Shown here in pieces: positions 18,415 to 40,357 of a stretch of 64,000 nt of DNA; positions within the stretch are counted from its first letter, which is position 1, and each line of letters opens with the position of its first letter. The stretch comes from Saprospiraceae bacterium. GTDB lineage: Bacteria > Bacteroidota > Bacteroidia > Chitinophagales > Saprospiraceae. A program made the position numbers and the translations under genes. The stretch spans positions 98,819 through 162,818 of the forward strand of contig JANQWK010000060.1 in NCBI GenBank assembly GCA_030729925.1, in the 5' to 3' direction. The notes under the pieces were generated by a model. It was not told the DNA's origin and ran no database searches. It saw only the letters and a program-made list of their open reading frames with translations.

Positions 18415-18417
18415 CGG

Positions 18418-22623: not shown

Positions 22624-22747
22624 AAATTATTACTTTTAAACTATTATTAGAACAGCCAAATTTGACAATTAGATGTCCAAAATCAAAAGTAGTCTGGATT
22701 TTTTTCAAATGCAATGTATCGGAAAGCAGCTGTATGCCGGCAACAGA

Positions 22748-23969: not shown

Positions 23970-25595
23970 CTATTGAGGTTTCCCTACCGCGCCTTCCCAG
24001 TCGGGGTCTGCTGCTCCGATCCAGGTTTTGGTTTTAGGATCAAACTGCACTGCATGCACTCTTCCGAAGCGTGCGGGCTGATTGATCTTTTTCAGAAAAA
24101 AGCCCTCTGACTGAATTTCTTCCAGACTTGCAGGATTCCAATTAATCCCTTCGTGGTTCTCTACAAGCATGCTATCTGCCTGAAAAAATACTCGTGGAGC
24201 GGCGAGGGCCTGGTCTAGCGGAAGCTGTTGGTCTATCACCCTGCTCATCACGGTCACCACGGCGGGAATAATGAGCGATCCTCCGGCTGCGCCGAGCGTG
24301 AGGAAGGGTTGTCCATCACGGGTAACAATCACCGGAGAAATGTGGGAAGCTGCACGCTGGCCAGGGTCAAACACACCGAGGTAGCGTCCCAGGGTCACGG
24401 CATATAAAAATCCAAGTTCGGGAGAAGCCACCCGGGATCCCATGTTAGGTCCGAGGGACTGCGTAAGAGAAACCGTCATTCCGTTTTTATCGGAAGCCGA
24501 CAAATGGGTCGTATGGCCATCCAACTGTTGCCATTGTTCAGGGCTTGCGCCCAAAAAACCCAATTGGCGGTTGGTATTGGATTGTAGGTTAACCTGGGGA
24601 AACAACGATGCGGCATAATCCTTAGCAATTAGGACCTGTGCCATAGAATCAGAAGTCTGTTTGTCGCGATCCTCATACGCCAATGCAATCGCCTGGTAAC
24701 AAGCTGTAGCCCAATCAGCTTCGCTCAACTCGCCCATTGGAAGCTGTTCCAGGATATTCATGATCTCCAGGGTAATCGCGCCAAAGGAAGGCATCCAGAG
24801 TGCGTTCACCTCATAGCCCCTGTAAGTGCTTTTCAACACCATCCGATCCTCGGCCTGATAAGCGGCCAGGTCTTCCAGGGTCATCACGCTGCCATTTTTT
24901 TGCAGGTCGCTAATCATTTTTTCCGCGATAGCGCCCTTGTAGAAAGCATCGCGTCCTCCGACTGCTATGGCTTTCAAGGTATTGGCAAGATCTTGCTGCA
25001 CCAGCAGTTCACCGGCCGAATACGTCGAATCGCCTTTGAGGAAATAGCGGGAAGTCCCTTCAAACTGCTTAATCTCGTCCAGTTGCATCGAATGGCGAAG
25101 CGCCTCACCGGGAAGCAGGTTAAAGCCCGCTTCAGCGAATTGGATAGCCGGAGCCATCACCGTCTCGAGGGACATTGTCCCATGTTCCTCCAGAATTTTG
25201 ATCAATCCGGCTACCACTCCGGGGATACCTACAGTGGGATAGCCAAAAGGTACATCCGCTGCGGTCGCCGTATCATAGGCCATTGGTGCCTGAGTAGTCG
25301 CGTCTATGCCGTGTATATCTCCTTCTGAGGTTCGAAGCAGGGCCATGAGGCGGCCTCCGATACCGCTCATGCTGGGTTCCACCACAGCAAGGGCGAAGCC
25401 GGCAGCCACGGCGGCATCTGCTGCATTACCCCCTTTTTCGAGCATTAGGCGCCCAGCTTGGGCGGCCAGGGGGTGAGCTGCGACTACCAGCCCCTCATTG
25501 GATTGATCAAACTGTGAGGAAGCGATGTCCTCAGGAGCTTCGCAGGCCCACAATAGTAGAGCGATGCCAGCTATCAGGTATTTTATCATCATCAT
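23970..25595 (-). CDS. ggt: Gamma-glutamyltransferase
   Basis: ATG 25595 (MMMIKYLIAGIALLLWAC lipobox); an alternative ATG lies at 25622. The protein shows GGT collinearity, including the autoprocessing/nucleophile region DGHTTHLSASD and GAAGGSLI. Confidence 0.92.
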   Translation of the reverse strand: MMMIKYLIAGIALLLWACEAPEDIASSQFDQSNEGLVVAAHPLAAQAGRLMLEKGGNAADAAVAAGFALAVVEPSMSGIGGRLMALLRTSEGDIHGIDATTQAPMAYDTATAADVPFGYPTVGIPGVVAGLIKILEEHGTMSLETVMAPAIQFAEAGFNLLPGEALRHSMQLDEIKQFEGTSRYFLKGDSTYSAGELLVQQDLANTLKAIAVGGRDAFYKGAIAEKMISDLQKNGSVMTLEDLAAYQAEDRMVLKSTYRGYEVNALWMPSFGAITLEIMNILEQLPMGELSEADWATACYQAIALAYEDRDKQTSDSMAQVLIAKDYAASLFPQVNLQSNTNRQLGFLGASPEQWQQLDGHTTHLSASDKNGMTVSLTQSLGPNMGSRVASPELGFLYAVTLGRYLGVFDPGQRAASHISPVIVTRDGQPFLTLGAAGGSLIIPAVVTVMSRVIDQQLPLDQALAAPRVFFQADSMLVENHEGINWNPASLEEIQSEGFFLKKINQPARFGRVHAVQFDPKTKTWIGAADPDWEGAVGKPQ

Positions 25596-25596
25596 A

Positions 25597-28194
25597 TTAT
25601 TTACAAGCTTCCAAAATAGCATTGAATATCAACTTATAAGTGCCTCTGGGTTGGCCTCTGAACTGTGGGCGGAAGCCAAAAAGCACCACCTTTCCCGATC
25701 CGTACCCACAAGTAATCAAGGCGGCCTTATCCTTCAAATAGCGGTTTTCTCCGGCTGCCCAGCCGCTCATCAGGATATCTTTTTCGGCATATTGCACCAC
25801 CACCTTGGCGTCTGGTGCTGGGGGGTCGGGGGTATTTTCTACTCCGCCTTCCCCTGTTTTACGTGGCTTGGTTACTTCAAAAGCCCGACTATCGGAGAAA
25901 GAAACGGCAAACTCATTGCGCATTCCCCAGCTCAGGGGGTCGGCTGCGGACAATTTGGCGCGGATCAGAGAACCCGGAACAAAAAATTCTCGGGAAGACA
26001 AATTTGCCGTAACATTTCTGACAGGCAGCCCCAGATGTTCGATGGCAAAATCGCTGGCCTCATCAAAAGCAATCAGTGTCCCTCCTTTTTCCACATATTT
26101 TTTGATGGCCATCACGCCCTCCAATTCCAAACCTCCGGTAAAAGGATCCGGCATGGTACCTTCCGGATGTCCATGCAAGATACGAGCAGGACTTTGGGAA
26201 GGAATGATAATAGCTTGGTAAACTGAAAGATCCCGGGAGCGGATATCTGCATCGTGCAGGGTATCCAGATCGAAGCTGTGTTGGAGCATCACCCATCTCG
26301 TCCAGCCCTCATCCATGTTTGCTACCCAGGATTTATAAATTCCAATCTTTATTTGATCTAATTTATCTGCTTTCTCCGTAGGCATATTTGAAGATGCTAC
26401 AAATTCCAGTCCATTCGCGCGCGCCTGTCCTTCCACCAGCGATGCCACTTTTTTACCGGTCACGAAGAAAGTACCGGCAGCCCATTCTTTGTCGTCCTGC
26501 ACTACAGGTTCTCTAAGTCGGTAAATATCCGCACCACTTTGTTGCAGCTCATTAACTGCCCTAAAAGCTGCATTTTCGCGGGCAGCCAGCCAGTAGCCCT
26601 CTTTACCCGATCCTGAAACTGTGCCGGGTGTGACCTCCAGCAAACCCTCCAGGCGATCAGCGGCAACCTCAAAGGCCTGATCCACGCGCACCACATCCAC
26701 GCCCATTTGCATAGGAAGTGTCCAGCCTGCAAGGTCATAAGGAGGAACCCTGGGCCCACCCGGATATTGAAACTCATCCGGGTAATTTTGTTTTTCCATT
26801 AAATCTACCAAATAAGGGCGGAAAGCCTGGGCACCGTAAAAAATCACTGTCCCTTCCGGAAAATTTTGACCATTTACCTCAAAGCCTGTTTTCGCCACGT
26901 GAGCTTCCAGCCCCCCGCGAATCAGGATATTGATCAATTCACGGGTTTCGCTGCGATCCCACTGATCAGGGCTAAACACATACGCGAAAGCCTCTTTAGG
27001 GTTCTTGATGGCATCGCGCCCCATCTTATAAATATTATAAAGGAAAGCTTCCTTTCGGCTGGCGGCCATATCCAGCAGTGCCATGGACGACTCGATCATA
27101 TAATCTACAGCATCGCGGAAATGAGACTCACCTCCTGGCCAGGGAAAAGGATACCATATTTCTGTGCCATCGGATCGCATCCCGCCTACCGATGAAGGCT
27201 TTTTCGCCGGATCGTAATAGCGGGGAGTCGGTGTAGCATGGGCAGTTTCGGTAAGAATGCCAATCATATTGTGGAAATAAGGCGCTGTGCGCATCCCGCC
27301 ATTCCACCACATACTGAAATTGGTCTGAGAAATCACCCCTGGCATATCGAGCATCGCAAAGCGGTTGGCCATAGCCGTGCCGATCAGGTTCACAGCGGTA
27401 GTCACGCCGGGGTGAATATTCGGGTTAACGGGAGAGCGGAAGGGAGGCAAAAAAATCCTCGCCCAGGCCGGAGAAGTCTGGTGGTGGTTGTGTACAATCT
27501 GGGGGAACCACTCGTGGTATAGCACCCTGGTTGCTGCGCGGGTCTCCGGCATATTGAGCATGAACCAGTCTCGGTTGTTGTCGTGGCCTACAAACTTCTG
27601 GTAGAGAATAGGCGGATTGGTGGTCTCGTAGGGCGTTCCCAGTTGCTGTCGGTACCAGTCCACCACAATATCAACCCCATCGGGATTGATCACAGGCACC
27701 ATCACCACGATCACATTCTCCCTGATCTTATTCATTTCATCACTTTCCTCGGCGGCAATCCGCCAGGCAAGTTCGCTGGTCATTTGAGCATGGGCCTTTT
27801 CCGAGGCGTGCATTCCCCCGTCAAACCAAACGACTGCCTTCCCCTCTTTGGCATGATTTTTAGCGGTAGCTTCGTCTATACGCGCCTTAGCCAGGTCTGC
27901 CGAAATATTTTTGAACCTGTCTTTATTGCGCAGGTTCTCTTCCGAGGAAATAAGCAATAATTTGATGGGTCTGCCGGCAACGGAAGTCCCGATATCCAAA
28001 AGTTCTACCCGGTCGGTGGCGGCGTCCAAGCGTTGGTAATAGTCCAACATCTGGTCGTAATCGGCCAGTTTGTAGTCAGCTCCGACCCGGAACCCAAAAA
28101 CTTCTTCCGGGCTTGGAATTTGTCCGGTCAGCCTAAAGCATAACACAAAGGCAGGTAGCAAGAGGAGCAAGCTCCTGAGTGGATGGTTTTGCAT
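25597..28194 (-). CDS. M14-family zinc carboxypeptidase with large C-terminal extension
   Basis: ATG 28194 (MQNHPLRSLLLLLPAFVLC signal). The M14 core has GGMHASE (HxxE zinc site), NPDG, HDNNRDW and a later HNHHQ. About 450 further residues resemble the class-I glutamine-amidotransferase-like C-terminal module seen in long bacterial M14 proteins (from memory). Confidence 0.8.
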   Translation of the reverse strand: MQNHPLRSLLLLLPAFVLCFRLTGQIPSPEEVFGFRVGADYKLADYDQMLDYYQRLDAATDRVELLDIGTSVAGRPIKLLLISSEENLRNKDRFKNISADLAKARIDEATAKNHAKEGKAVVWFDGGMHASEKAHAQMTSELAWRIAAEESDEMNKIRENVIVVMVPVINPDGVDIVVDWYRQQLGTPYETTNPPILYQKFVGHDNNRDWFMLNMPETRAATRVLYHEWFPQIVHNHHQTSPAWARIFLPPFRSPVNPNIHPGVTTAVNLIGTAMANRFAMLDMPGVISQTNFSMWWNGGMRTAPYFHNMIGILTETAHATPTPRYYDPAKKPSSVGGMRSDGTEIWYPFPWPGGESHFRDAVDYMIESSMALLDMAASRKEAFLYNIYKMGRDAIKNPKEAFAYVFSPDQWDRSETRELINILIRGGLEAHVAKTGFEVNGQNFPEGTVIFYGAQAFRPYLVDLMEKQNYPDEFQYPGGPRVPPYDLAGWTLPMQMGVDVVRVDQAFEVAADRLEGLLEVTPGTVSGSGKEGYWLAARENAAFRAVNELQQSGADIYRLREPVVQDDKEWAAGTFFVTGKKVASLVEGQARANGLEFVASSNMPTEKADKLDQIKIGIYKSWVANMDEGWTRWVMLQHSFDLDTLHDADIRSRDLSVYQAIIIPSQSPARILHGHPEGTMPDPFTGGLELEGVMAIKKYVEKGGTLIAFDEASDFAIEHLGLPVRNVTANLSSREFFVPGSLIRAKLSAADPLSWGMRNEFAVSFSDSRAFEVTKPRKTGEGGVENTPDPPAPDAKVVVQYAEKDILMSGWAAGENRYLKDKAALITCGYGSGKVVLFGFRPQFRGQPRGTYKLIFNAILEACK

Positions 28195-28270
28195 GCGTTT
28201 TGTTTTGGTTGTTAAGATAAGTCCCTGCTGTTGAATTGCCAAAAGCGTGCCCCATAAATTGTTCCAGGAC

Positions 28271-30076
28271 TTAAAGTTCTTCTTTCTGATCCTGCAAAAC
28301 CTTCCGGTAATGGCTGAAAATATGCGATTTGGATACAAAGCCTACGTATTTCCCTTGTTCCAGCACAGGTAAGTTCCAGGCTTCGTGCTGATCGAATTTA
28401 GCCATGACCCGATCCATCGGTTCGGTGACATCCGCAAATGCCGGCGGCCGATGCATGAGATCCGATACTTTAATCCGCTCGTAGGCACTGGTATCGAACA
28501 TCAACTCCCGGACATCATCCAGCAAAATGATGCCTTTCAGGGATTGGTCGGCGTCCACTACCGGAAAAACATTGCGTTTGCTGGATGCAATAACCCGGAC
28601 AAACTCCCCCAACGTGCTTTCAGGGGCTACCACTGTAAAATTGGTTTCCACCAGCGATCGAATCTCCATGCTTTTCAGGATGGTCAAGTCTTTTTCATGT
28701 GCCGGAACCCACAATCCTTGTTGAAACAATTCCCGGGTAAATATGGAAAAAGGTTCAAAGTAAGCCCCGGTAAAGTAAGCCAGCGCGGATACCAGCATCA
28801 GCGGCACAAAAAGGTTGTACCCGCCTGTGATCTCAGCAATCAGGAAGATGCCTGTCAGGGGAGCCTTAAACACCCCGCTCAGCATGCCTGCCATGGCCAC
28901 GACGATAAAATTAGAACCTTCCAGCTGCAATCCACCAACTTGATTCAGTACTTGGACAAACAAATATCCCAGCGTGGCTCCCGTAAACATGGCAGGAGCA
29001 AATACGCCGCCATTTCCACCAACAGACAAAGTGATGGCCGTTGCAAGTGCCTTGGCAAACAGCAAAAAGGTTAAAAACAGCAGAATAAACCACCAGCGAT
29101 CTCCCAGACCGTAAAACGGGCTATGGTTGAGCAGATCATCCAAGCGGGACTCCAGTAAATCGTTGACGGTGGCATAGCCTTCTCCAAAAAGCGGCGGCAT
29201 GAGAAAAATCAGCAATCCCAGAGATAACCCACCAAGTAAAAACCGATAGCTTCCCCGCTGAAAGCCGTTGAAATGAGAGCTGACATAGTTGACGGTGCGA
29301 ATCAGATAGACCGAGAGCAAACCGCACAACAATCCAAGCCCAACAAACCAGGGTATGTCCCCAATGCCCCAACTTACCTCCGGGAGAAAAAATATTTTTT
29401 GGTAAACCAGCACACTGGATACCAGAGTAGCAGTTACTGCAGCAATAATCAAGGGGATAAACGAATGCAGGGCAATTTCTCTGAGCAGCACTTCGAAGGC
29501 AAAAAGTACTCCGGCAATGGGGGTATTAAAGATAGCTGCCATCCCGGCGGAAGCCCCGCATGCCAGGAAGAGCGTCTGTTTTTTTCGACCTACCAGCAGT
29601 AAGCGGGCTAAATTGGCTCCAATGGCCGATCCGGTTCGAATAATGGGAGCCTCTAATCCCACCGATCCTCCAAAACCAACGGTCAAACCGCTTCCAATGA
29701 TGTGGCCGTACATATCTTTTGCCGGAAGGTTTACCTTTTTGCGGGATATGGCGTGGATCAAATTGCTCAAACCCGGCGTAAGCGTTTCTCCGAAAAGGAG
29801 TTTGTCGGCCAATAAACGCAACAATATCCCTGCAAGGGGAAGGATTACAAACCACAATTGCTCTGCATCGGGTTGTTGTCCGTGGAGCCAGTCTTTCAAG
29901 CCAAAAACAATTGATTTTAGCAGTACTGCACCCAAACCAGCCACAAGCCCGATAATCGCACTAACCAGCAGCAGGTAATTACGCGCTGCAATTCTGCCCG
30001 ACAACCATCGAAGTGCTTGGTTGAACCTGCGCCTCAACCGGACTTTAACCTGTCTTACTGCAACGGATGGAATCAT
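28271..30076 (-). CDS. ClC-family chloride channel / H+-anion exchanger with C-terminal CBS pair
   Basis: 601 aa and multi-TM. ClC selectivity motifs are GSGLT, GLEAP (gating Glu) and GGVFAP. The C-terminal ~140 aa have two CBS-like units (VFPVVD..., WNLPVLE...). Confidence 0.9.
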   Translation of the reverse strand: MIPSVAVRQVKVRLRRRFNQALRWLSGRIAARNYLLLVSAIIGLVAGLGAVLLKSIVFGLKDWLHGQQPDAEQLWFVILPLAGILLRLLADKLLFGETLTPGLSNLIHAISRKKVNLPAKDMYGHIIGSGLTVGFGGSVGLEAPIIRTGSAIGANLARLLLVGRKKQTLFLACGASAGMAAIFNTPIAGVLFAFEVLLREIALHSFIPLIIAAVTATLVSSVLVYQKIFFLPEVSWGIGDIPWFVGLGLLCGLLSVYLIRTVNYVSSHFNGFQRGSYRFLLGGLSLGLLIFLMPPLFGEGYATVNDLLESRLDDLLNHSPFYGLGDRWWFILLFLTFLLFAKALATAITLSVGGNGGVFAPAMFTGATLGYLFVQVLNQVGGLQLEGSNFIVVAMAGMLSGVFKAPLTGIFLIAEITGGYNLFVPLMLVSALAYFTGAYFEPFSIFTRELFQQGLWVPAHEKDLTILKSMEIRSLVETNFTVVAPESTLGEFVRVIASSKRNVFPVVDADQSLKGIILLDDVRELMFDTSAYERIKVSDLMHRPPAFADVTEPMDRVMAKFDQHEAWNLPVLEQGKYVGFVSKSHIFSHYRKVLQDQKEEL

Positions 30077-31023
30077 GATAAGCTGTGATCGGTTTTCTTT
30101 TGCAGGGTTTTCATATCGAAGTGCTTGTCAAAAAATTCGTCACACCACAAACACACATTGCCCAATTCGCCACACCTTCTTTCGGCATCCAGCTTACTGA
30201 TACCCAAAACCTCTCCCATAGCCCAGGGATCCCCCTTGTCCAGTGCCTGAAATACAGGATGGTCTGCTACCCTGGCCAGAATGTCCGCCACTTTTTGCGT
30301 GCGCGCATCTCCCATCGGTTCTTTTGTGCCGGGGCAACAAGGATTGACCGCCCAAAGCTGAATGGACACCTCCTGGGGGATATCCGGTCCACCGTTCAAA
30401 AAACCGATAGCTCCTGACAAAATACCACAAAAATTGTGCTGAGGATCTTGCTTCCAAAGGCCTTTTTCGTAAGCCCTGCCTCTTGCCCAATTGCCCCCCA
30501 ACCACATGTCTTCAGTGGCGCCCCAATAGCCCCAGCTCAGCGGAAAAGCGTGAAGGTAATTGTCCTTTTTTACCAGCGGATCTTTTTCTTCTCCATTTAC
30601 CCCTCTGGAATCAAACAGCTCTGCCAATTCGGTCAAACGAGCTCCGGCAGCCTTGTGGAAGCGATCAATGCTTGCAACATCGAAGCGGGTCACCCCCTTC
30701 GCAATCAACACATCTAAAATTTCTCCGGTCAGCAGATCCCCGTTGGTTTGCAACATAATCTGAGTAGTATTGCCGTATTTCGATTTCAAGGCATCGAGGA
30801 TGAGATACAATTTCTGTTTTTCCGCAAGGGGCTCCCCTCCCGACAAGATGATCCGATCCATGCTGTCCGGAAGGTTGTCAATGATAGCCAGACAATCTGC
30901 TTCAGAAATACGTGAGCCCTGTGGCCCGGAAAAATTGTAGCAATGATCGCATTTGTCGTTGCACAGCTGGGTAAACACCCAGTACACCGATGCTATATGG
31001 TTAAATTTATTGTTGGGGTTCAT
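30073..31023 (-). CDS. Radical SAM enzyme with Cys-rich C-terminal domain (family unassigned)
   Basis: ATG 31023 (MNPNNKF...), 316 aa. Motifs are CNDKCDHC (CX3CX2C, nt 30940-30963), ILSGGEPL (GGE motif) and LQTNG. The C-terminal part has six Cys (NFCG, NPCCPG, RRCGELGNVCLWCDEFF). Confidence 0.85.
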   Translation of the reverse strand: MNPNNKFNHIASVYWVFTQLCNDKCDHCYNFSGPQGSRISEADCLAIIDNLPDSMDRIILSGGEPLAEKQKLYLILDALKSKYGNTTQIMLQTNGDLLTGEILDVLIAKGVTRFDVASIDRFHKAAGARLTELAELFDSRGVNGEEKDPLVKKDNYLHAFPLSWGYWGATEDMWLGGNWARGRAYEKGLWKQDPQHNFCGILSGAIGFLNGGPDIPQEVSIQLWAVNPCCPGTKEPMGDARTQKVADILARVADHPVFQALDKGDPWAMGEVLGISKLDAERRCGELGNVCLWCDEFFDKHFDMKTLQKKTDHSLS

Positions 31024-31750
31024 GTTGCTGTAATTGTTGTATTCGAGTCCAAAAATCCAGTTCTTTACGGGCGCCGCTTTCGGGGGAAGCCAGGAAATCC
31101 TGAACCTGGTCAAACACCGTCAACTTCCCGCCTTTCAAGGTTGCCAGTTGATCTGCCGTCATCAGCGCTTCTTTAATATCGTGGGTGACAAAGATGGTTG
31201 TCATGGAGAAAGTCAGCCGGAGTTCCCCAAAAAGCACCTGCATTTCTTCCCTGGTTTGGTGGTCCAAACTGGCAAAAGGTTCGTCGAGCAAAAAAATTTC
31301 AGGTTCTATGATCAGGGAGCGTCCAAAACTGACCCGCTGTTTTTGTCCACCGGACAATTGATCCGGCATTTTATGCAACTGCGTATCCAGCCCCAGCCGC
31401 TGAGCGAGCTCCCCTACCCTTTCCCGAACAACTTTGCCAGGCAACCTTCTGATTTCCAAACCATAAGACAAATTTTTGGCTACGCTTAAATGCGGGAAAA
31501 GCAAGGGCTCCTGGCTGAGGTAAACAACCTTTCGCTGCGACGGTGGGATGTGTAGCATAGATTTTCCCGCAATTCGGAAATCCCCTGCATCGGGGGACTC
31601 CCATCCGGCAAGTAGGCGCAATAAGGTGCTTTTTCCAGAACCAGAGGCACCGGTCACACAAAGGGTTTTGCCTTTTTCCAGGACAAAATTCACCCCGTCC
31701 AGCACGATTTCGTTTCCATATTTTTTTTGGAAGTCCATGACTGCTATCAT
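31007..31750 (-). CDS. ABC transporter ATP-binding protein
   Basis: 247 aa with Walker A GASGSGKST, Q-loop, signature LSGGQKQR, Walker B IFLLDEP and an H-loop (VTHD). No C-terminal regulatory domain. Confidence 0.92.
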   Translation of the reverse strand: MIAVMDFQKKYGNEIVLDGVNFVLEKGKTLCVTGASGSGKSTLLRLLAGWESPDAGDFRIAGKSMLHIPPSQRKVVYLSQEPLLFPHLSVAKNLSYGLEIRRLPGKVVRERVGELAQRLGLDTQLHKMPDQLSGGQKQRVSFGRSLIIEPEIFLLDEPFASLDHQTREEMQVLFGELRLTFSMTTIFVTHDIKEALMTADQLATLKGGKLTVFDQVQDFLASPESGARKELDFWTRIQQLQQHEPQQ

Positions 31751-32517
31751 ACCTGCAAAGATAGTTTACCGACTACAATATAGCTAATCGCCCCCAGCAG
31801 CACCACCGGACTAACCAGTAGGATGGCAGCAAGGGCGGCTACGTGCGGATTGGCTTCGTTGAGGTAGTGCATTACGCCTACCGTTAGGGTTTGAACTTTC
31901 CCTATGCCAATCAGGCGAGTGATGCCATACTCATACCAGGAAATCAGAAAGCACTGCAACAGCGACAGTCCCAGCCAGGGTTTTGCCAGCGGTAAAATAA
32001 TCCCTGAAAGAGCCTGAAGCGGCCTTGCACCCAAAGTAATTGCCTGCTGGTACAATTGCCGAATATGCCGATTCCAAAAAGTGGACAGCAAAATATTGGC
32101 ATAAGGCACCACAAACAACAACTGGGCGATCCAAACGCCACCCGTGGAACCGCTTAGTCCAAAACGGACAAAATAGGTTTGCAGCAAAGCTCCAAAACTC
32201 ACCGGGGCGATCAAATACGGAAAGAATGACAAGGCCAGCCAGGTGCTTCTACCTGGAACCAACAGCAAAAAAGCCGAAAAGAAAAAACCTAAGCCGGTAG
32301 CCGTCAAACTAATACTGGTTGCCATCAACAGCGATAAGGCAAAACTGCTGGTGAGTCCCGAATAAGTCCCACCCAATCCGCTCCAAAATTCCAGGGAAAA
32401 ATGGGCGCGCAACAAGTCCGGATAAACCCAAAATTTAACAGCAGAAAGATACAGCAATGCCGCCAGAGGCAGCGCTAAAAATATAATTATCAGCGTATTA
32501 AGTGTTTTTTGCATCAT
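31747..32517 (-). CDS. ABC transporter permease (second membrane subunit)
   Basis: 256 aa, ~6 TM segments, binding-protein-dependent transport inner-membrane component pattern. ATGA overlaps at both ends. Confidence 0.85.
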   Translation of the reverse strand: MMQKTLNTLIIIFLALPLAALLYLSAVKFWVYPDLLRAHFSLEFWSGLGGTYSGLTSSFALSLLMATSISLTATGLGFFFSAFLLLVPGRSTWLALSFFPYLIAPVSFGALLQTYFVRFGLSGSTGGVWIAQLLFVVPYANILLSTFWNRHIRQLYQQAITLGARPLQALSGIILPLAKPWLGLSLLQCFLISWYEYGITRLIGIGKVQTLTVGVMHYLNEANPHVAALAAILLVSPVVLLGAISYIVVGKLSLQV

Positions 32518-33365
32518 AATATCCGATATTTTTTTATTCCACCGAATGCGAGTACCCCTGCCAGGAGAATATAGACCACCAGCATAGCATGTCCCTGAGG
32601 GATATCCGCCAGATTGAATCGCCCCAGTTTGTCCGTGATGTAGAGGGTCATTACCCTTGGGGAAGATCTGCCCAGCAGCAGGGCAACCTCGTAGGTGCCG
32701 ATCAAAAATATGGCATAAAGCCGAATGAGCAGTTCAGCTTTGCGCAACTGAAGGGGAATGTACACCCTGCGCAAAAACTGGCTCCGCTTGCTGCCCAGGC
32801 TCTGAGCTACCTGCCACAACGCGCCCATGCGCACTTTGGCAGATTGGTGCATAAACAAGAGGGCAAACAAAGGAAATACCAAAAAAACATGGGTAAGCAC
32901 CAAGCCCACACCGGGGAAGTCATTTACGATTACCGGAAAGGCTTCTATGCCACCTATCCAGCCCAGGTGAAAGGCCAGCCTGGACAAAAAGCCCGAAGGA
33001 CTTAGCAAATAATACCAGGAAAAACCCGCTACCAGGGGTGGGAAGGCCAGTGGTAATAGCAACCAACGACGCAGGGTGTTTTGGGAGCGAAGCTCGTGTA
33101 ACCAGGCTACTCCAAGGGCCAACGACAAGGATAAGGCCATTGAAATAGCTGCCACCAACAGACTGTACCCCATACTCCTCCAGGCATCGGTATCCTGAAG
33201 GAGGGTCTGCCAATGCACCAAGGTAAATCCTTGGGACAGTAGTCCTGTCAACCCCAGACTGTATCCCAAAGAATAGCCCAATCCGGCAAGCAGGGGAACC
33301 CCACAGATCAGCAGATACAGCGACAATACGCCTGCAAATTGCCACGATCTCGTTTGACTTTTCAT
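32514..33365 (-). CDS. ABC transporter permease (first membrane subunit)
   Basis: 283 aa, ~6 TM segments, EAA-like loop (AQSLGSKRSQFLRRVYIPL). ATGA overlaps at both ends. Confidence 0.85.
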   Translation of the reverse strand: MKSQTRSWQFAGVLSLYLLICGVPLLAGLGYSLGYSLGLTGLLSQGFTLVHWQTLLQDTDAWRSMGYSLLVAAISMALSLSLALGVAWLHELRSQNTLRRWLLLPLAFPPLVAGFSWYYLLSPSGFLSRLAFHLGWIGGIEAFPVIVNDFPGVGLVLTHVFLVFPLFALLFMHQSAKVRMGALWQVAQSLGSKRSQFLRRVYIPLQLRKAELLIRLYAIFLIGTYEVALLLGRSSPRVMTLYITDKLGRFNLADIPQGHAMLVVYILLAGVLAFGGIKKYRIL

Positions 33366-34591
33366 TGCTCCGACAAAACTTTTTTGCGAAAATCCTCAAA
33401 CAAGCGGATCATATAAACCGGATCTGGTTCCATCAGGGCTTTTGGAGCAAGTGCTGAGCGAGGAGGCACGTATTGCCGCTCCCCCACCTCTGACATTTTT
33501 TCCCGCCAGGGAGCATCCAGGCGATCCGGCGACAAGACCGTTCCGTCGCCCCAGTTCAGTGGATCCAACTTGGCGATTTGGGCTTCGGGACTAATCAGGA
33601 AGTTGCATAACACCATCGCGGCGGCTTTATTGGGGGCTTGTGCCACGATACCGAGGTAATGGGAATTCTGAATCGAACCGTAATCGGGCACAAAAGCGCG
33701 ACTACTTTCGGAAAACAAACCCTCGCGAACCTTGTTGTCCACCTCTGCATCGTTGTTGCTGAAGGTAAACCACAATTCCCCGCTTGCAAACAACTGGTGC
33801 ATTTGGCTGAGGCTGGCGGGAAAACTTTCGCCGCGGTTCCAAAAATAGGGCTTATTGCGATTGACAAACTCCCAGAGCTTTTGGCTGCTTTGAAGGTACT
33901 TTGACTCGTCGAAAGGCCCCTGAAGCGCGTCCCGGCCTCCGGCAAAATGGATCAGCCAGGATTTCAGCAGCGTCATTCCGGTAAAATCGTTGCTCAGGGT
34001 AAATTTCCCGGGATTTGCCCGAAGCCAAAGTTCCAGCGCCTCCAAGTCGGCCGGGGGAGTCGGAATACGGGAGCTGTCGTATATCCAGGCCATCTGGACA
34101 TTGCCCCAAGGGCACTCATACCCTTCGATGGGCTGTTGAAAATCGGTATGGATAAACGGATTATCCCAGTCAATCAGGCGGCTGTTGGGCAATCTGTCCA
34201 CAAAAGGCCCAAAGAGCCCCTTGATCTGCCGCAACTGGTAAAAGGTTTCTCCGTTGATCCAAATCGCATCTATTTGACTTTCTTTCCGTCCAGCCTCCAT
34301 TTCGGTCATAAGGGTACTCACAATGATGTTGCCCTGTCCTGAAAGAATATCGAGTTCGATACCGAAAGTGTCTTTCATAGCGGGCACCACAAAATCCCTC
34401 ATGTAACGGTTGATCATGGGATCGCCCTGCCACATCATCAGGGTGAGCCTTGTGCCACGAGCCTGAGCTTCCAATGCCTCCCAGGACTCAGGAAGTGCCG
34501 AAGAAGTCGCGGATTCCTTATCGGGACTGCAGGAAAAAGCCCAAACAAGGAGAAATAGCGGGGTAAACCATTTTTTCATGTGCTTATTCAT
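33362..34591 (-). CDS. ABC transporter substrate-binding lipoprotein (YnjB-like)
   Basis: 409 aa with the lipobox LVWAFSC. The periplasmic-binding-protein pattern (LTLMMWQGD...IDAIWINGETFYQ...W...) resembles the E. coli YnjB / thiamine-iron(III)-type group as I recall it. The ligand is unknown. The start is ATG 34591 or ATG 34579. Confidence 0.8.
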   Translation of the reverse strand: MNKHMKKWFTPLFLLVWAFSCSPDKESATSSALPESWEALEAQARGTRLTLMMWQGDPMINRYMRDFVVPAMKDTFGIELDILSGQGNIIVSTLMTEMEAGRKESQIDAIWINGETFYQLRQIKGLFGPFVDRLPNSRLIDWDNPFIHTDFQQPIEGYECPWGNVQMAWIYDSSRIPTPPADLEALELWLRANPGKFTLSNDFTGMTLLKSWLIHFAGGRDALQGPFDESKYLQSSQKLWEFVNRNKPYFWNRGESFPASLSQMHQLFASGELWFTFSNNDAEVDNKVREGLFSESSRAFVPDYGSIQNSHYLGIVAQAPNKAAAMVLCNFLISPEAQIAKLDPLNWGDGTVLSPDRLDAPWREKMSEVGERQYVPPRSALAPKALMEPDPVYMIRLFEDFRKKVLSEQ

Positions 34592-37580
34592 TAAAGAGGT
34601 ACCTCAAGGAAAACTGAAACTGTCTGGGGGGAGCTGCATTTCGACGAACAAAAACCCCTGCGGCAGCGGAGCCTGTTTGAATTTGGTTGCTCTGGGTAGC
34701 ATTGTTCGCATACCCGCTCCAATTATCCGCGTCGAGCAGGTTAAATACTTGGGCGGCCAGTTCGACTTTCCCGGATTTACCTGCAGCCAGGGTGTAGCTT
34801 GCACTCCAATCGAAGGTCACGGCTCCCGGCAGGCGATCGCTGTTGCGGCTTTCCCCGGGGTGGCGGTCGCTGTTACCCACGTACGCGTCGCCGAAAGACC
34901 TGCCATCGCCATTCAAATCGGATGTTCCGTACAAGCGTGCATCCGGGATACGGTTCACCGGCTGACCGCTCTGGATGAGGGAAGTCAGACTAATGCGCCA
35001 TTTGGAAGTTGGATACCAGTACAACAAACCATTGATCAGGTGTCGGCGATCGTTGATAGAAGGGCCCCATTCTGCCTCAAAATCATTGCCATCCATTGCT
35101 CTGAAATTGATATCCTCGGTATTGTTTTCCAGTTTAGACAGGGTATAAACCAGGCGCCAGGCAAATGCTCCGGCACCCCGCTCGCGCTGTATGGTCAGGT
35201 TGAGCGCGGCATACCGCGATTCACCGGCCGACTCTGTCATCACCACATTGCGGGCAGCGCCTCTTAGCACCTCATTGTTTACCAGGATATAATTCCCGCC
35301 TGCATCGGCGAAAACGGGTACAGGGCGGAGCTCGTCAGCTTCTGCTGCGCTCCGTACCACCACATTTGAAGGATCTAAGGGATGAGCTGCCGGTGCATTG
35401 AGGTTGCGCAGTCGGAAAAGTCGGTGCGAGCGGTTATGAAGCACATCAACATAGACCAATGTATGGGACGCTATTTTTTTCTGCATGCCCAACATCCACT
35501 GGTGGCTGTAGGGATTTTGGTACCCGGAGGGATTGAGAATGCGCAATTCATTTTGAAACAAACCATCCCGCTGATCCTGAAGATCCCCTGCTGCCGGCCC
35601 CTGCAGGTAATCCACCGCAGGCCAGCTTGCCACCAAATTTCCCTCATGGGTTACCGCTTCGATATCCGTATCGGCGGGAAGCAAGCCCTTTGTCACCAGA
35701 GCCTGGATTTGGCGTTGATAATCCCTGCTATTGGAATTGAACTGCAGTGCGTCGCTATAAATGGCATACAGGATTTTATCGTAGTACACCCCATAACCTG
35801 CTCGGAAGGTCGTATTGGCATCGCGTTGGTAATTGAGTCCGATGCGGGGCGCCAGGTTGTTGCGGTCTCCCTTTTGGGCTCCGCCCTTCGACAAATTATC
35901 GTAATCATAGCGCAGACCCAGATTCAGGTTCCATTTAGGGTGCAGGTTCCATTGATCTTCGATATACCCACTCCAGATTTGCTGGGTATGACCGAAAGCC
36001 CTTGGGCGGAGTTCCACTCCGTAAAACAACACCTGGGCATCTAAAGGCAGGTCAGTCGGTGACAGGTCAATGCCCCTGCCGGAATTTCTAAGGGTAGCCA
36101 GTTGATTATCTGTCAGTCGAACCACATAACTCCCATTGGGATTCCCCCCTCCAAGCAGGGAAAACCGAGAAGACTTCAGCTCCAGTCCTCCCCGAAGACT
36201 GTGGTTACCGCTTGTCCATTGCCACTTTTGCTGCAACTGCAAGGTATTTTCAGTTTCGTCAAACACATACCCGGGATGTCCCAAAACAGCCACCACCTGA
36301 GCATCCGGCCCCTCCACGGTCACATTCGGCTGGATATCATCCATGGGTTGCGCATAATTCCAGCGAAAGCGCCCGTAGAGTACATTAGTTTCCATCACCC
36401 AGTTGTTCGCCCGGTAGGAGTTTTTCCATGCGATATTGGTCGCAATTCTATCCTGTTGGTTGCCTGCGGAGGGAAACAACAATCCCCCTTCCAATCCCCC
36501 GCCCTGACGTTCTATACTTACCCACCCGGTATTGACCCGCAGGGCACTCTGCCAGCGAGGCGACCAATAATGATCCAATTTTGCCGACAGGTAAGTAAAA
36601 CTATTCCTTCCGCGCAATGTAGCCTGTATCCCCAGCGCATCGGCAGTCAGGGCATTATCCTTCAGGTCGGTCGTATGTTCGACATTCAAAAAGTAAAAAG
36701 TCTGGTCTTTTTTGAGGGGGCCACCCAGTGCAAAACCGGCCTGATGACGTTGAAAACCGTTTTTAACCAAGTTGCCCGACAAATCTCGTTGGGCAAACTC
36801 GGGTGTTCCGTCAAGGACAGGCCCCGGGCGGGTAAGGTAAAACCACTCTTGAAAAGGGGTATTGGTACCTGACTTTGAAGTAATATTGATGATTCCATTG
36901 GCGCTAAGACCGTGTGCTGCGCTGAAATTATTGGTCAGGGCTGTAATTGACCGCACAAAACCAACAGGAACCGCGAAGCGCTGCCCCCCGAGGAAATTTT
37001 CATTATTATCCATGCCATCTATCTGATAGCTCGTAAATAAGCTATTCGCCCCATTGATGGCAACATTGGGCGCCTCCGGAAAAAACCCTGTAGCCAGAGA
37101 AATATTGGGCAGCCGAAACAAAGCCCTGGAAATATCCCTGCCTTCCACGGGCAGCTCGGTCAGTTCTTTAGCGGTCAGCACAGAAGACACCTCCGCATCT
37201 GAACCATTCACAGCCAGGTATGGTCCGGCCGTCACCTGAACTGCTTCCAGGTTGAGGGTTTTATCCAGCAAAAGCAGCGAAACCGAAATCGTTTTGCCAT
37301 CGGCTAAAGCAATTTGGTTAACCGGGTCGGCCTGAAACAACATACTGGGCGACAATTCCACCGCATACAATCCCGAAGTAGAAAGACCCGACAAAAAGAC
37401 CAGCCCTTGTTTGTTGGAAAAAGCCTGCTCCCTAAAACCAATCGAGGGATTGCTGACCAGCACCAACTGATCCGACACCGGATTCCCCTGGATGTCAAAC
37501 AAGGTGATCTCAAGGGCAGACTGCGTATAGACATAATTTATATTCAGCACGATAAGTGCCATACACAACAAAAATCGCAT
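34584..37580 (-). CDS. TonB-dependent receptor with N-terminal carboxypeptidase-regulatory-like domain
   Basis: ATG 37580 (MRFLLCMALIVLNINYVYTQ signal), 998 aa. It has an N-terminal Ig-like domain (ITLFDIQGNPVSDQLVLV...GLYAVEL), a plug region (VSSVLTAKELTELPVEGRD...INGANS) and a long beta-barrel ending ...FQFSLRYLFNE. The track ORF is over-extended to 37805. Confidence 0.88.
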   Translation of the reverse strand: MRFLLCMALIVLNINYVYTQSALEITLFDIQGNPVSDQLVLVSNPSIGFREQAFSNKQGLVFLSGLSTSGLYAVELSPSMLFQADPVNQIALADGKTISVSLLLLDKTLNLEAVQVTAGPYLAVNGSDAEVSSVLTAKELTELPVEGRDISRALFRLPNISLATGFFPEAPNVAINGANSLFTSYQIDGMDNNENFLGGQRFAVPVGFVRSITALTNNFSAAHGLSANGIINITSKSGTNTPFQEWFYLTRPGPVLDGTPEFAQRDLSGNLVKNGFQRHQAGFALGGPLKKDQTFYFLNVEHTTDLKDNALTADALGIQATLRGRNSFTYLSAKLDHYWSPRWQSALRVNTGWVSIERQGGGLEGGLLFPSAGNQQDRIATNIAWKNSYRANNWVMETNVLYGRFRWNYAQPMDDIQPNVTVEGPDAQVVAVLGHPGYVFDETENTLQLQQKWQWTSGNHSLRGGLELKSSRFSLLGGGNPNGSYVVRLTDNQLATLRNSGRGIDLSPTDLPLDAQVLFYGVELRPRAFGHTQQIWSGYIEDQWNLHPKWNLNLGLRYDYDNLSKGGAQKGDRNNLAPRIGLNYQRDANTTFRAGYGVYYDKILYAIYSDALQFNSNSRDYQRQIQALVTKGLLPADTDIEAVTHEGNLVASWPAVDYLQGPAAGDLQDQRDGLFQNELRILNPSGYQNPYSHQWMLGMQKKIASHTLVYVDVLHNRSHRLFRLRNLNAPAAHPLDPSNVVVRSAAEADELRPVPVFADAGGNYILVNNEVLRGAARNVVMTESAGESRYAALNLTIQRERGAGAFAWRLVYTLSKLENNTEDINFRAMDGNDFEAEWGPSINDRRHLINGLLYWYPTSKWRISLTSLIQSGQPVNRIPDARLYGTSDLNGDGRSFGDAYVGNSDRHPGESRNSDRLPGAVTFDWSASYTLAAGKSGKVELAAQVFNLLDADNWSGYANNATQSNQIQTGSAAAGVFVRRNAAPPRQFQFSLRYLFNE

Positions 37581-37620
37581 AAAGGACAATTTTGATCCGT
37601 TCAAAAAAAATACAGGCAGA

Positions 37621-38319
37621 CTACAACTGAGCGACTGCGGGCGGCGCACGCAGCTGCCGGACGGAACGGATCGGAGCAGGATAGAGAAAACCTCGCACGG
37701 ACAACAGCGGGCGAACATTCGACCAGAGCCATTCCCGGAGCCATTGTACCAGGGAACGTGTGGAAGCAGAACTATGAAGATAAGCCTGGATATCCTCGAG
37801 GCCATTTAGGTCTCGGAGAGATTCGAGCAACAAACAATGATCCCTATAAAATGCACTGAATAGCTTGAAAAGGCTGGGACTTTGCCAGGGGAGCTGTTGA
37901 AAAGCGAGGGGCTTGAAGTCCGACTTTGGCATCCCAATCAGATAAACTCCCCCTCTTAAGTCAGGCCCCAGGATACCCCGTTTCAGGAAAGCTTGTTCCC
38001 GAATAAACCCCCAATCCAGTTGATCGAGTTGAGGACAATCGCTGCCCACACAAATCACATAATCATGCCCCTGGGCAAAAACCGAAGCAAAAGCATGCGC
38101 AATCCGCTCGCCGAAAGTAGCGCCTGACTGCAGCCGCTCATCGAAATGATACAAAGGCATGTCGGCCGCATGCAGTACCTCGAGGGTATGAGAAAGCAAA
38201 GCTCCTGCGATCATCTTATTGCGGCGCGCTGCATTACCTGGAAGCCAGCGTTTGCGGCTTGCTTCCCTTGCTGCCTGGCGGCTAAACAACAAAATGGCCG
38301 GAGATCCCTGTCTCTTCAT
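37621..38319 (-). CDS. DUF2064-domain protein (TIGR04282-like putative glycosyltransferase)
   Basis: 232 aa. AILLFSRQAAREASRKR, ...GATFGERIAHAF..., ICVGSDCPQL and ILGPDLRGGVYLIG fit my recollection of the DUF2064 pattern (AILvFak..., G.dLGeRm, IGtDcP, lGPa.DGGYyLiG). Confidence 0.65.
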   Translation of the reverse strand: MKRQGSPAILLFSRQAAREASRKRWLPGNAARRNKMIAGALLSHTLEVLHAADMPLYHFDERLQSGATFGERIAHAFASVFAQGHDYVICVGSDCPQLDQLDWGFIREQAFLKRGILGPDLRGGVYLIGMPKSDFKPLAFQQLPWQSPSLFKLFSAFYRDHCLLLESLRDLNGLEDIQAYLHSSASTRSLVQWLREWLWSNVRPLLSVRGFLYPAPIRSVRQLRAPPAVAQL

Positions 38320-38438
38320 GGGTCAAAGATAGCCATAAAATAATTCACCAAAAATCGGGGCAACAGATTTGGTCGCTTCGAGGCAATGTTTAACTTTAAC
38401 ATTTGTTTAAGAATTGAAAAACCAATAGCTTTTTTCCC

Positions 38439-39863
38439 TTGAAAATACACCTGCAAACCCTGATTGGGCTGATGGTATTTGCTGTGGCAGCCAGATTGCT
38501 GTCCTTTTTTCCCAGCGTCATCAACCACGACGAATCCACTTATTTGGTCATTGCCCAGACCTTACTTCAAGGCTACACCTATTTTGTAGATTACATAGAC
38601 ACTAAGCCTCCGGGGATTTTTTGGATTTTAGCTGGTTTTCTGGCCGTATTCGGGAAATCCATTGTGCTATTCCGTGCTTTTGTGGCCATTATCATTGCCA
38701 CAACCGCTTTTGGGTTATATCTGATCCAATTGACAATGGGGCAAAGCAGAAAGGTTGCCCTGGGGACGGCACTCATCTATATCCTGCTAAGCTCACTGTT
38801 TACCTTTTACGGCATTTCGCCCAACACGGAGACCTTTTTCAATTGCTTTACTGTATTTGCTTTCTGGCTTGTTTTGAGCAAGCGGAGAGGCTGGACATAC
38901 CTCCTTGCCGGTTTTTTGCTCGGCGCAGGTTTCATGATCAAGTACGTAGTGGTATTTGACGCTGCTGCTTTCGGCGTATGGTTACTTTGGGAACAGATCG
39001 TAAAACGTCGAAACTGGGGTGTTTTCTGGGGCAGAGCCTTTGCCCTTATCGCCGGGTTTTTGATCGTACCGGGAATCACCCTGATGTATTACCACCAACA
39101 AAACACCCTTGAGACCTGGTGGTTTCACTCGGTTATCGTATCGAGCAGATACCCCGAGCTTCACCAATGGCAGGACTATTTTATCTTCCCGATGGACTTC
39201 TTTCTGCGTTTTTTACCGGTAACCCTTTTTTACCTACTGGTGCTGCGCACCAAGCGCATTGGCCGGGAAACCAAAATACCGTATCTTATTTGGTCGGGTT
39301 TTGCCTTTTTTTCCGTCATGCTGCCCGGAAACGCCTATGGACACTACTTCATCCAGTTTATGTTGCCCTTTAGCTTACTTGCGGGTCTGATCTGGAGCCT
39401 TACCCCAGAGGAACTGCCTGCCTGGATGCGCTGGATCCATCAAAAAATCATCCTCCGGCGAACACTCGTGGGATTTGTCGTCCTAACGCTGTTTTTCCAA
39501 TACAACGATTATCTCAAAAAACCGGATTATCCCAAGCTCATTGCGAATTATCTCCAACCAAAGATGCAAGTAACGGACAACCTCTATACCGGAAACGGAA
39601 GTCAAATATTATATCTATTGCTCAACAAAAAAGTACCCAATAAATACGTACATCCGTCTCTGTTTTGGGAAGAGAAGCACCTAACAGCCATGGAAATAGA
39701 CATTGAGGCAGAAGTTGGTACGATACAGGCGAGACGACCCAAATACGTGATCATCAAAGACGAACTCTGGGATGACCGATTCGATTCCTGGCTCGAAACC
39801 TCCTACCATTTGGACACCACATTTCGGGAAGGACGAATAAAAATTATGGAGCGAAACGACTAA
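38439..39863 (+). CDS. Glycosyltransferase family 39-like (ArnT/PMT-type GT-C) membrane protein
   Basis: 474 aa with ~11 hydrophobic segments. The N-terminal NHDESTYL...YIDTKPPG motif is similar to ArnT-family enzymes. The start is TTG 38439 or ATG 38472. Confidence 0.7.
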   Translation: MKIHLQTLIGLMVFAVAARLLSFFPSVINHDESTYLVIAQTLLQGYTYFVDYIDTKPPGIFWILAGFLAVFGKSIVLFRAFVAIIIATTAFGLYLIQLTMGQSRKVALGTALIYILLSSLFTFYGISPNTETFFNCFTVFAFWLVLSKRRGWTYLLAGFLLGAGFMIKYVVVFDAAAFGVWLLWEQIVKRRNWGVFWGRAFALIAGFLIVPGITLMYYHQQNTLETWWFHSVIVSSRYPELHQWQDYFIFPMDFFLRFLPVTLFYLLVLRTKRIGRETKIPYLIWSGFAFFSVMLPGNAYGHYFIQFMLPFSLLAGLIWSLTPEELPAWMRWIHQKIILRRTLVGFVVLTLFFQYNDYLKKPDYPKLIANYLQPKMQVTDNLYTGNGSQILYLLLNKKVPNKYVHPSLFWEEKHLTAMEIDIEAEVGTIQARRPKYVIIKDELWDDRFDSWLETSYHLDTTFREGRIKIMERND

Positions 39864-40282: not shown

Positions 40283-40357
40283 GGTGACTGACCGGGATCG
40301 AACCGGCGACCTCAGGAACCACAATCCTGCGCTCTAACCTGCTGAGCTACAATCACC
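40283..40357 (-). tRNA. tRNA-His (anticodon GTG)
   Basis: Manual cloverleaf: G(-1)+GTGATTG / CAGTCAC acceptor, GCTC-AGCAGGTTA-GAGC D arm, CAGGA-TTGTGGT-TCCTG anticodon arm (GTG), AGGTC variable loop, GCCGG-TTCGATC-CCGGT T arm, discriminator C. The extra 5' G is the tRNA-His hallmark. Confidence 0.93.

Follow-up and report, generated by a model that had tools for sequence, protein, structure and literature searches.

Energised importers coupled to a cytoplasmic enzyme of the radical S-adenosylmethionine (SAM) type, which transforms the imported cargo, are known from the ChuW, HutW and HmuW heme loci and from C-P lyase loci, which carry phnCDE together with phnJ. Here we analyze a gene cluster with this layout in a 64,000-nucleotide stretch of DNA (hereafter the window) from a Saprospiraceae bacterium of the Bacteroidota (GenBank assembly GCA_030729925.1, contig JANQWK010000060.1, positions 98,819 to 162,818). 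Its genes encode, in order, a DUF2064 protein, a TonB-dependent receptor (TBDR), a YnjB-family binding lipoprotein, two permeases and the ATPase of an ATP-binding cassette (ABC) importer, a radical SAM enzyme that we call rSAM-X, and a ClC/CBS protein. We consider it probable, though well short of certain, that these genes form an eight-gene operon whose first seven members, from DUF2064 to rSAM-X, are a Bacteroidota-wide module for uptake and radical chemistry.

An initial annotation of the locus had compared it to the C-P lyase and ChuW/HutW systems. The analogy holds for operon architecture and goes no further, as the enzyme is neither PhnJ-like nor HemN-like: ChuW and HutW belong to the HemN-like class C methyltransferases and PhnJ to the non-canonical glycyl-radical/SAM enzymes, neither of which is related to rSAM-X in sequence or fold. 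The heme systems also employ class III binding proteins (HmuT/BtuF type), whereas that of the window is predicted to be a class II protein of the PotD/FbpA/PhnS type. On the side of the enzyme, the closest described proteins are BtrN and SpeY, dehydrogenases of the butirosin and spectinomycin aminocyclitol pathways that act on small polar molecules. They include the best fold match to the rSAM-X model and share with rSAM-X the size class, a partial TIM barrel, the CX3CX2C motif and a four-cysteine site with twitch-type spacing; however, they are only ~15% identical to it, have no curated family in common with it, and are encoded in antibiotic biosynthetic clusters rather than in an uptake operon.

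Among importers, the window resembles PhnSTUV, FbpABC, PotABCD and ThiBPQ in the nearest folds of its binding protein and in matches to PhnU/PhnV and PhnT2, but every one of these matches lies far below the family cutoff and they indicate no ligand class. Escherichia coli YnjBCD has the same importer type and ATPase class, and its binding protein belongs to the same family as that of the window; it differs in its fused permease and in having no TBDR, radical SAM or DUF2064 partner. The searchable literature assigns no substrate or function to YnjBCD, which hence gives no clue to the ligand. In E. coli K-12 (L162; NC_000913.3, 1834000-1846000) the gene order is ydjX (DedA), ydjY (ferredoxin-like), ydjZ (DedA), ynjA (AhpD-like), ynjBCD and ynjE (rhodanese/molybdopterin synthase sulfurtransferase), a setting of redox and sulfur-transfer functions that may be informative about the ligand of the YnjB family.

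Organization of the gene cluster

All eight genes lie on the minus strand. The DUF2064 gene (37621-38319, 232 amino acids), which is likely the first of the operon, is followed by those of the TBDR (34584-37580, 998 amino acids), the binding lipoprotein (33362-34591, 409 amino acids), permease 1 of the type I importer (32514-33365, 283 amino acids), permease 2 (31747-32517, 256 amino acids), the ABC ATPase (31007-31750, 247 amino acids), rSAM-X (30073-31023, 316 amino acids) and the ClC/CBS protein (28271-30076, 601 amino acids). The initial annotation had described seven genes, from the TBDR to ClC/CBS, with no intergenic DNA between them, and the coordinates and junction sequences confirmed this arrangement. 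Four junctions are ATGA stop/start overlaps (33362-33365, 32514-32517, 31747-31750 and 30073-30076), and the ATPase and rSAM-X genes overlap by 17 nt, with the ATPase stop at 31007-31009 and the rSAM-X ATG at 31021-31023; the N-termini of 34 homologues identify ATG 31023 as the rSAM-X start, and not the upstream TTG 31113. The TBDR stop (TAA, 34584-34586) overlaps the binding-protein gene by 8 nt if the latter starts at ATG 34591, and an alternative start at ATG 34579 would leave a 4-nt gap after this stop. The TBDR itself starts at ATG 37580 with a signal-peptide-like sequence, MRFLLCMALIV.

The domain assignments of these seven genes also stood, Pfam and NCBIfam being in agreement on all of them; in the window, NCBI gives only the names 'radical SAM protein', 'chloride channel protein' and 'DUF2064 domain-containing protein'. 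The boundaries originally drawn around the gene set, on the other hand, were correct for the part from TBDR to radical SAM but wrongly took in ClC and left out the DUF2064 gene, which shares the strand of the TBDR gene and is only 40 nt upstream of it. Downstream, 76 nt separate the ClC gene from an M14 peptidase gene.

The packing alone is unexceptional, because the 4-nt ATGA is the commonest type of overlap in bacterial operons. Six spacer-free junctions in a row nevertheless exceed the packing of unrelated neighbours and fit one translationally coupled operon, the genes of which would, judging from this packing, be co-transcribed.

Conservation of the module

We used the rSAM-X protein as query to collect 80 loci (all loci are numbered L in what follows) from species-representative genomes and mapped the window proteins onto them, scoring colinearity in the 53 loci whose upstream flank reached 8 kb or more and downstream content in the 64 loci with at least 2 kb downstream. 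The succession TBDR, binding protein, permease 1, permease 2, ATPase and radical SAM, in the same order and on the same strand, was found in 45/53 loci, and tblastn located DUF2064 upstream of the TBDR in 29 of these 45. All seven module genes are present in the window, in an order matching that of the 29 fully matching loci. The initial annotation had made its proposal depend on synteny of the radical SAM gene with the transporter genes in related genomes, and this synteny with the TBDR and the YnjB-type importer is indeed what we observed.

Colinear carriers include Saprospiraceae, Lewinellaceae, Hymenobacter, several Cytophagales families, Flavobacteriales, Chitinophagales and one Ignavibacterium; cultured organisms are among the carriers (Hymenobacter spp., Marinigracilibium pacificum, Chondrinema litorale, Fulvivirga and Pontibacter). 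Taken gene by gene, the TBDR is present in 48 of the 53 loci and permease 1, permease 2 and the ATPase in 49 each. Median identity to the window protein is highest for the radical SAM enzyme (70%), followed by the binding protein (56%), the TBDR (54%), the ATPase and both permeases (45%, 44% and 40%) and finally DUF2064 (33%). The radical SAM enzyme, 66-80% identical between Bacteroidota orders, is thus the best-conserved component of the module. Its distribution is narrow: a pattern scan found relatives in 139 genome stretches among 185,579 species representatives, and in a HMMER search over 1.84 billion proteins just 30 representative clusters passed E<1e-30. The searchable literature yielded no account of the cluster, whose gene combination the initial annotation had not recognised as a described pathway.

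The radical SAM enzyme

rSAM-X matches PF04055 at 48.2 bits (cutoff 29.5) and PF13353 (Fer4_12) at 34 bits. Its C21-NDK-C25-DH-C28 segment (CX3CX2C) is invariant in 35 sequences and in distant relatives, and the 'GGE' SAM-binding motif, S61-G62-G63-E64-P65, is invariant in the alignment, as expected of a radical SAM superfamily member. Seven cysteines are invariant family-wide: C21, C25, C28, C199, C229 (or C230), C291 and C294. Those that lie outside the SAM cluster mark a second cluster site, made of C199 (HNFC), C229/C230 (NPCCPGT, after the predicted strands 218-222 and 225-227) and C291-x2-C294, that is, one cysteine before a hairpin, one after it and a distal CxxC, which is the arrangement of a twitch domain with a predicted auxiliary cluster. 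The seven-cysteine motif of SPASM domains is absent, with just four invariant cysteines outside the SAM cluster, and no SPASM-family NCBIfam model scored above 42 bits (cutoffs 265-650).

In NCBIfam, rSAM-X and its distant relatives gave matches to the N-terminal core only (NirJ, AhbD, viperin, MoaA and HxsC), far below cutoff. The ArsS model TIGR04167 was not among the best 25 of 46 NCBIfam matches of rSAM-X and was missing from the complete match lists of two relatives (P0122 and P0129); Pfam showed no DUF3641 domain, PF04055 and PF13353 being its sole matches. Neither Pfam nor NCBIfam gave a HemN-family match, and HemN (1olt) appeared as a weak partial fold match to the rSAM-X model (rank 25, TM score 0.33). 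A PDB sequence search returned marginal matches only. In these NCBIfam and PDB searches the enzyme fell into none of the characterised families, housekeeping ones included; such a placement the initial annotation had named as one that would count against its proposal.

The AlphaFold2 (AF2) model of rSAM-X had a predicted local distance difference test (pLDDT) score of 77.8 and a predicted TM (pTM) score of 0.82. Foldseek placed BtrN first (4m7t; E 4e-6, TM score 0.61 on the target), then EpeE (8ai1; TM score 0.56), with further matches to CteB, SpeY (7wzx), viperin, MoaA and TigE. By its sequence motifs and predicted structure, rSAM-X is an orphan radical SAM enzyme of the twitch type, predicted to carry one auxiliary cluster ligated entirely by cysteines.

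DUF2064 and the enzyme pair in distant lineages

The DUF2064 protein of the window matches PF09837 at 48.3 bits (cutoff 25.8). Against TIGR04282 it reaches 58.3 bits (cutoff 134), over profile positions 70-188 only, and its homologue in L133 reaches 111.5 bits; on these scores it is a distinct DUF2064 subfamily, a divergent relative of TIGR04282. In sequence it also matches PDB entry 3cgx, a 'putative nucleotide-diphospho-sugar transferase' (E 5.6e-9), and its fold is accordingly predicted to resemble that of these transferases.

Loci from distant lineages were obtained by scanning metagenome contigs with an alignment of distant rSAM-X family members and then using a DUF2064 HMM. In 14 of them, where the radical SAM protein is 41-49% identical to that of the window, DUF2064 is encoded directly downstream of it, and in 6 of these 14 a family-2 glycosyltransferase lies directly upstream; the single representative scanned, from L120, passes TIGR04283 (194 bits, cutoff 182). 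In three other distant loci the radical SAM gene is followed by a gene that can be aligned with DUF2064 and with the glycosyltransferase alike; the one scanned, from L098, encodes a fusion protein above cutoff for TIGR04282 (201.5 bits, cutoff 134) as well as TIGR04283 (243.5 bits, cutoff 182). Proteins that pass TIGR04282 or TIGR04283 flank members of the rSAM-X family at L098:8453-9868, L120:7132-7815 and L127:6012-6680; as rSAM-X is unrelated to ArsS, the name 'arsenosugar biosynthesis glycosyltransferase' borne by the two families may be too specific.

The distant radical SAM-DUF2064 loci carry no TBDR or ABC genes. The pair adjoins a sodium:solute symporter (SSS) family protein in L090, L092, L098, L099 and L112, and in L105 it stands beside a multi-pass membrane protein that reads as MFS-like in sequence and has no NCBIfam match. 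Intermediate arrangements exist as well: DUF2064, TBDR and radical SAM genes occur without ABC genes in L007, L008, L019, L149 and L150, and the Ignavibacterium locus L070 bridges the two architectures, with a family-2 glycosyltransferase and a DUF547-like protein upstream of DUF2064-TBDR-ABC-radical SAM. What stays invariant is thus the pair of radical SAM enzyme and DUF2064, around which transporter classes are interchangeable. That the pair keeps an adjoining transporter, though of differing class, is the weightiest argument for the two enzymes acting on an imported compound.

DUF547-like homologues, identified by reading the sequences, were seen at L070:412-2517 (Ignavibacterium), L098:432-1322, L106:6324-7067 and L130:1738-2439; recurring near radical SAM/DUF2064 clusters in several phyla, this protein is a possible further component of the ancestral set of genes. 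Two further neighbourhoods were set aside. That of L127, read as decarboxylase subunits and a ThiB-like importer, was judged unrelated, and a link to tungstate, raised by what reads as a TupABC-type importer and an aldehyde dehydrogenase after the radical SAM gene, was rejected, as it occurs at a single locus (L087:10839-15191).

The importer

The TBDR is of the long 'OMP_b-brl_4' type, in which plug and barrel are preceded by a signal peptide and a beta-sandwich-like extension at the N-terminus, and matches PF25183 (187 bits, cutoff 30), PF00593 (51.4 bits, cutoff 27) and PF07715 (30.8 bits, cutoff 23.9); a PDB sequence search with it found no solved relative. The binding protein reaches 356.4 bits against NF008633 (cutoff 203), over profile positions 17-394 of 397, and shares 35% identity with E. 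coli YnjB in an alignment of 334 residues. Its lipobox cysteine, Cys21, is invariant in 33 homologues. A PDB search with the binding-protein sequence gave no match and one with its profile only weak FutA/FbpA tails, whereas its AF2 model (pLDDT 91.4) has as nearest folds 4r6y (STM0429, which we take to be PhnS), 5t1p (a Campylobacter binding protein) and the Thermus dinucleotide-binding protein 7c0v, followed by PotD-like and FbpA-type proteins. By sequence the protein is a true member of the YnjB family, with a predicted fold of the PotD/FbpA/PhnS class.

Permease 1 matches BPD_transp_1 weakly, and its best NCBIfam matches, all far below cutoff, are permeases of the ModB/Mo type, PhnU2 and ThiP. 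For permease 2 the top four NCBIfam matches are 2-aminoethylphosphonate permeases (PhnU/PhnV; E 8e-11 to 1e-7, below cutoff). The ATPase matches PF00005 (ABC_tran) at 108 bits, and its best NCBIfam matches, which all fall short of cutoff, come from the CysA, PhnT2, UgpC, WtpC and PotA classes. In sequence, these two components thus lean, below cutoff throughout, toward the aminoethylphosphonate, sulfate, molybdate and polyamine classes.

Regulatory elements

At least 17 related loci, where ~0.15 would be expected, have a 16-nt palindrome, TGTC-N8-GACA, with the operator spacing of the CRP/FNR family, ~50 nt ahead of the start codon of DUF2064 (for instance at L001:2379-2394, L002:2580-2595, L004:2465-2480, L007:1067-1082, L013:2477-2492 and L048:2234-2249). 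Since it precedes DUF2064 in relatives, the operon would start at this gene. The upstream neighbours are not conserved and none is CRP/FNR-like, so that no regulator gene for the palindrome emerged among them.

Bacteroidota sigma-A promoters follow the -7 consensus TAnnTTTG. In the window the segment TATCTTTG (38324-38331, minus strand), 4 nt upstream of the DUF2064 ATG, agrees with it and is a candidate promoter element. A scan of 25400-38700 for sigma-70 promoters and terminators gave nothing above shuffled expectation. An Rfam scan at gathering thresholds over the window and seven related loci found no riboswitch, its hits being tRNA and signal recognition particle (SRP) RNA only (in the window, a Bacteroidales-type small SRP RNA at 18315-18420 and a tRNA at 40283-40356, both on the minus strand).

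Proposed function

We propose that the TBDR would carry a scarce, small, polar solute through the outer membrane, that the binding lipoprotein would pass it to the type I ABC importer, and that rSAM-X and DUF2064 would jointly process it in the cytoplasm. Like BtrN, rSAM-X would hold two clusters, a [4Fe-4S] cluster that cleaves SAM and an auxiliary one ligated by Cys alone. Going by other twitch enzymes, the likeliest course is that a 5'-deoxyadenosyl radical would abstract a hydrogen from the substrate, after which the auxiliary cluster could serve one-electron redox chemistry such as dehydrogenation, epimerisation or bond cleavage, and DUF2064 may catalyze a nucleotidyl- or glycosyl-type transfer before or after the radical step. 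The order of these cytoplasmic steps, the type of reaction and the class of ligand are what we infer. The initial annotation had proposed a system dedicated to import and radical transformation of a solute, and it is this core, an uptake and radical module, that persists, with ClC taken out and DUF2064 brought in. Its statement that the ligand cannot be read from the sequence also stands, for neither ligand nor reaction could be read.

Several points weigh against this proposal. All functional assignments draw on genomic context and fold, and the rSAM-X model is of moderate quality, with low confidence at residues 22-36, 119-125 and 169-179 and TM scores of 0.5-0.6 to BtrN and EpeE. Most twitch and SPASM enzymes modify peptides or proteins, BtrN and SpeY being a small-molecule minority. 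E. coli has YnjBCD without radical SAM or DUF2064 partners, and thus the ligand of such an importer need not require radical chemistry. DUF2064, moreover, was found by tblastn in only 29/45 colinear loci, which could mean that it acts in trans or is dispensable, and the window itself lacks TGTC-N8-GACA, the best near-match, at 38404-38419, having 2 mismatches.

Alternative explanations

The alternative that survives best, although we regard it as unlikely, is a biotransformation of As- or Se-type metalloids, in which rSAM-X would be a functional analogue of ArsS and DUF2064 the counterpart of the TIGR04282 'arsenosugar biosynthesis' transferase, while the importer would bring in a metalloid or an organo-metalloid such as an algal arsenosugar. 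ArsS adenosylates dimethylarsenite (PMC13598754). The set formed by ArsS, TIGR04282 and TIGR04283 resembles the present one in pairing a radical SAM enzyme with a family-2 glycosyltransferase and with a transferase-like protein of DUF2064, the Pfam family to which TIGR04282 belongs. In distant loci the partners of rSAM-X pass the TIGR04282 and TIGR04283 cutoffs, and an ArsM-like methyltransferase accompanies the cluster occasionally. The two sets also differ. rSAM-X belongs to another family than ArsS, as indicated by the TIGR04167 and DUF3641 results above, the DUF2064 protein of the window stays far below the TIGR04282 cutoff, the window has no glycosyltransferase partner, ArsM or ars gene, and the Bacteroidota version is built around an importer. 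The 'arsenosugar' names of TIGR04282 and TIGR04283, furthermore, presumably derive from genome context and not from an assay.

The methyltransferase argues in both directions. It lies inside the cluster in five loci (L015, L152, L157, L159 and L139; for example at L015:9248-9985, L152:9232-9981, L159:12230-12877 and L139:3595-4287), but its best match, NF008823 'arsenite methyltransferase', reaches 185 bits against a cutoff of 263, and a glycine replaces the 'SNC' cysteine that the canonical ArsM copies of L139 (4858-5559) and L160 (17297-18061) keep. Similarly, a canonical arsR-arsM-phosphoesterase-aquaporin operon directly follows the cluster in L139, L160 has ars genes close by, and in L076 they are transcribed divergently from DUF2064; yet ars genes within 10 kb of the cluster occur in just 3 of ~110 long loci, barely above chance. 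The invariant cysteines of rSAM-X are all cluster ligands and leave no spare thiol for As(III), and energised high-affinity import of a toxic metalloid would be unusual.

Other accessory genes of the relatives are absent from the window. The adjoining genes c6 and c7 encode distant paralogues of ~215 residues (~19% identity), of which c7 is very conserved; they occur in 10-12 of the 80 loci from genomes and in another five from metagenomes (L017:6800-8082, L001:10951-12260, L071:7887-9186 and L030:5118-6385 are examples). Their position in the cluster varies by lineage, and it is because of these shifts that a functional link to the cluster is suggested. The c8 gene (~122 codons) follows the radical SAM gene in nine genome loci. 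No usable match to c6, c7 or c8 was obtained in Pfam, NCBIfam or PDB-profile searches, where hits were marginal, as between c8 and NTP_transf_4 (E 0.0024).

Less probable than the metalloid reading is that rSAM-X serves as the maturase of a peptide or protein, either the precursor of a ribosomally synthesized and post-translationally modified peptide (RiPP) or a component of the transporter. The fold neighbours of rSAM-X do include the peptide epimerase EpeE as well as CteB and TigE, a remote relative (P0235) matches the YydG model over its N-terminal part with 81 bits, and the binding protein has an invariant cysteine, Cys160, in an ECPWGN motif. This cysteine, however, is a serine in E. coli YnjB, so that it is no family-wide modification site. 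The window leaves no intergenic room for a precursor-peptide gene, and clustering of open reading frames of at least 90 residues showed no further conserved gene, shorter precursors lying below detection by this approach. rSAM-X has four auxiliary cysteines in place of the seven-cysteine SPASM motif typical of RiPP maturases, and, as the enzyme retains DUF2064 across changes of transporter class, a small molecule acted on by both is a better fit for the substrate than a transporter protein.

An integral role of the ClC/CBS protein, which the initial annotation had cast as a seventh component exporting an anion released by the reaction or balancing charge, appears improbable. Membership of the protein is clear, with 261.7 bits to PF00654 (Voltage_CLC) and 56 bits in two stretches to a CBS pair, although it falls short of the ClcB-like equivalog NF002505 (234 bits versus 482). 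In favour of a role in the system, its gene overlaps that of rSAM-X through an ATGA, an overlapping, contig-truncated gene, by its position a candidate ClC gene, lies there in a 98%-identical relative (L161), and a tblastn search of 160 loci at E 1e-3 gave one partial match, upstream of DUF2064 in L129. Against it, none of the 64 related loci with sufficient downstream sequence carries ClC, including relatives with a 77-80% identical radical SAM protein, and in other loci the radical SAM gene is trailed by the c6/c7 pair, c8 or unrelated genes. This synteny rules ClC out as a general component; the ClC/CBS protein is a lineage-specific passenger with no conserved role, probably co-transcribed with rSAM-X in the lineage of the window.

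Chance or positional clustering of a radical SAM enzyme with an unrelated housekeeping role beside a transporter has in its favour only that the functional claims are contextual, and is very improbable in view of the colinearity over several orders, the narrow distribution of the family and the lack of an equivalog family for the enzyme.

Genomic surroundings

Divergent from DUF2064, a PMT_2/ArnT-like membrane glycosyltransferase is encoded on the plus strand (38439-39863); it lies near the cluster in no other locus, is probably unrelated and was not retained as a module member. On the other side of the cluster, beyond the ClC gene, Pfam identifies a large M14 carboxypeptidase-family protein (25597-28194, minus strand), which is present in none of the related loci. 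Farther away are genes that read as a gamma-glutamyltranspeptidase-like protein (23970-25622, minus strand) and a heavy-metal P-type ATPase (20500-22623, minus strand), and between these two a membrane protein with a Gly/Ser-rich tail (22673-23968, plus strand).

Implications

Speculatively, and at rather long odds, the radical SAM-DUF2064 pair may be a hitherto unrecognised, phylum-spanning system for an environmental trace organo-element or onium compound, mounted in Bacteroidota on a TBDR and a YnjB-type importer; equally tentative examples would be C-As or C-Se chemistry on algal arsenosugars or methylated arsenicals, or the salvage of a cofactor precursor. To our knowledge, no enzymes of microbial turnover have been identified for algal arsenosugars or methylated arsenicals. 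If this were true, it would provide the first substrate for the YnjB transporter family; if the function proved to be ordinary nutrient salvage, the value of the finding would lie mainly in annotation.

The association of the TIGR04282/TIGR04283 pair with a second, unrelated radical SAM family means either that the annotation of these families is too narrow or that the module takes part in metalloid metabolism. The constraint on this orphan radical SAM family is unusually strong, and the family has a fixed DUF2064 partner and a setting in uptake, which makes its chemistry experimentally approachable. Through the cluster the ligand of the YnjB transporters, E. coli YnjBCD among them, could also be reached.

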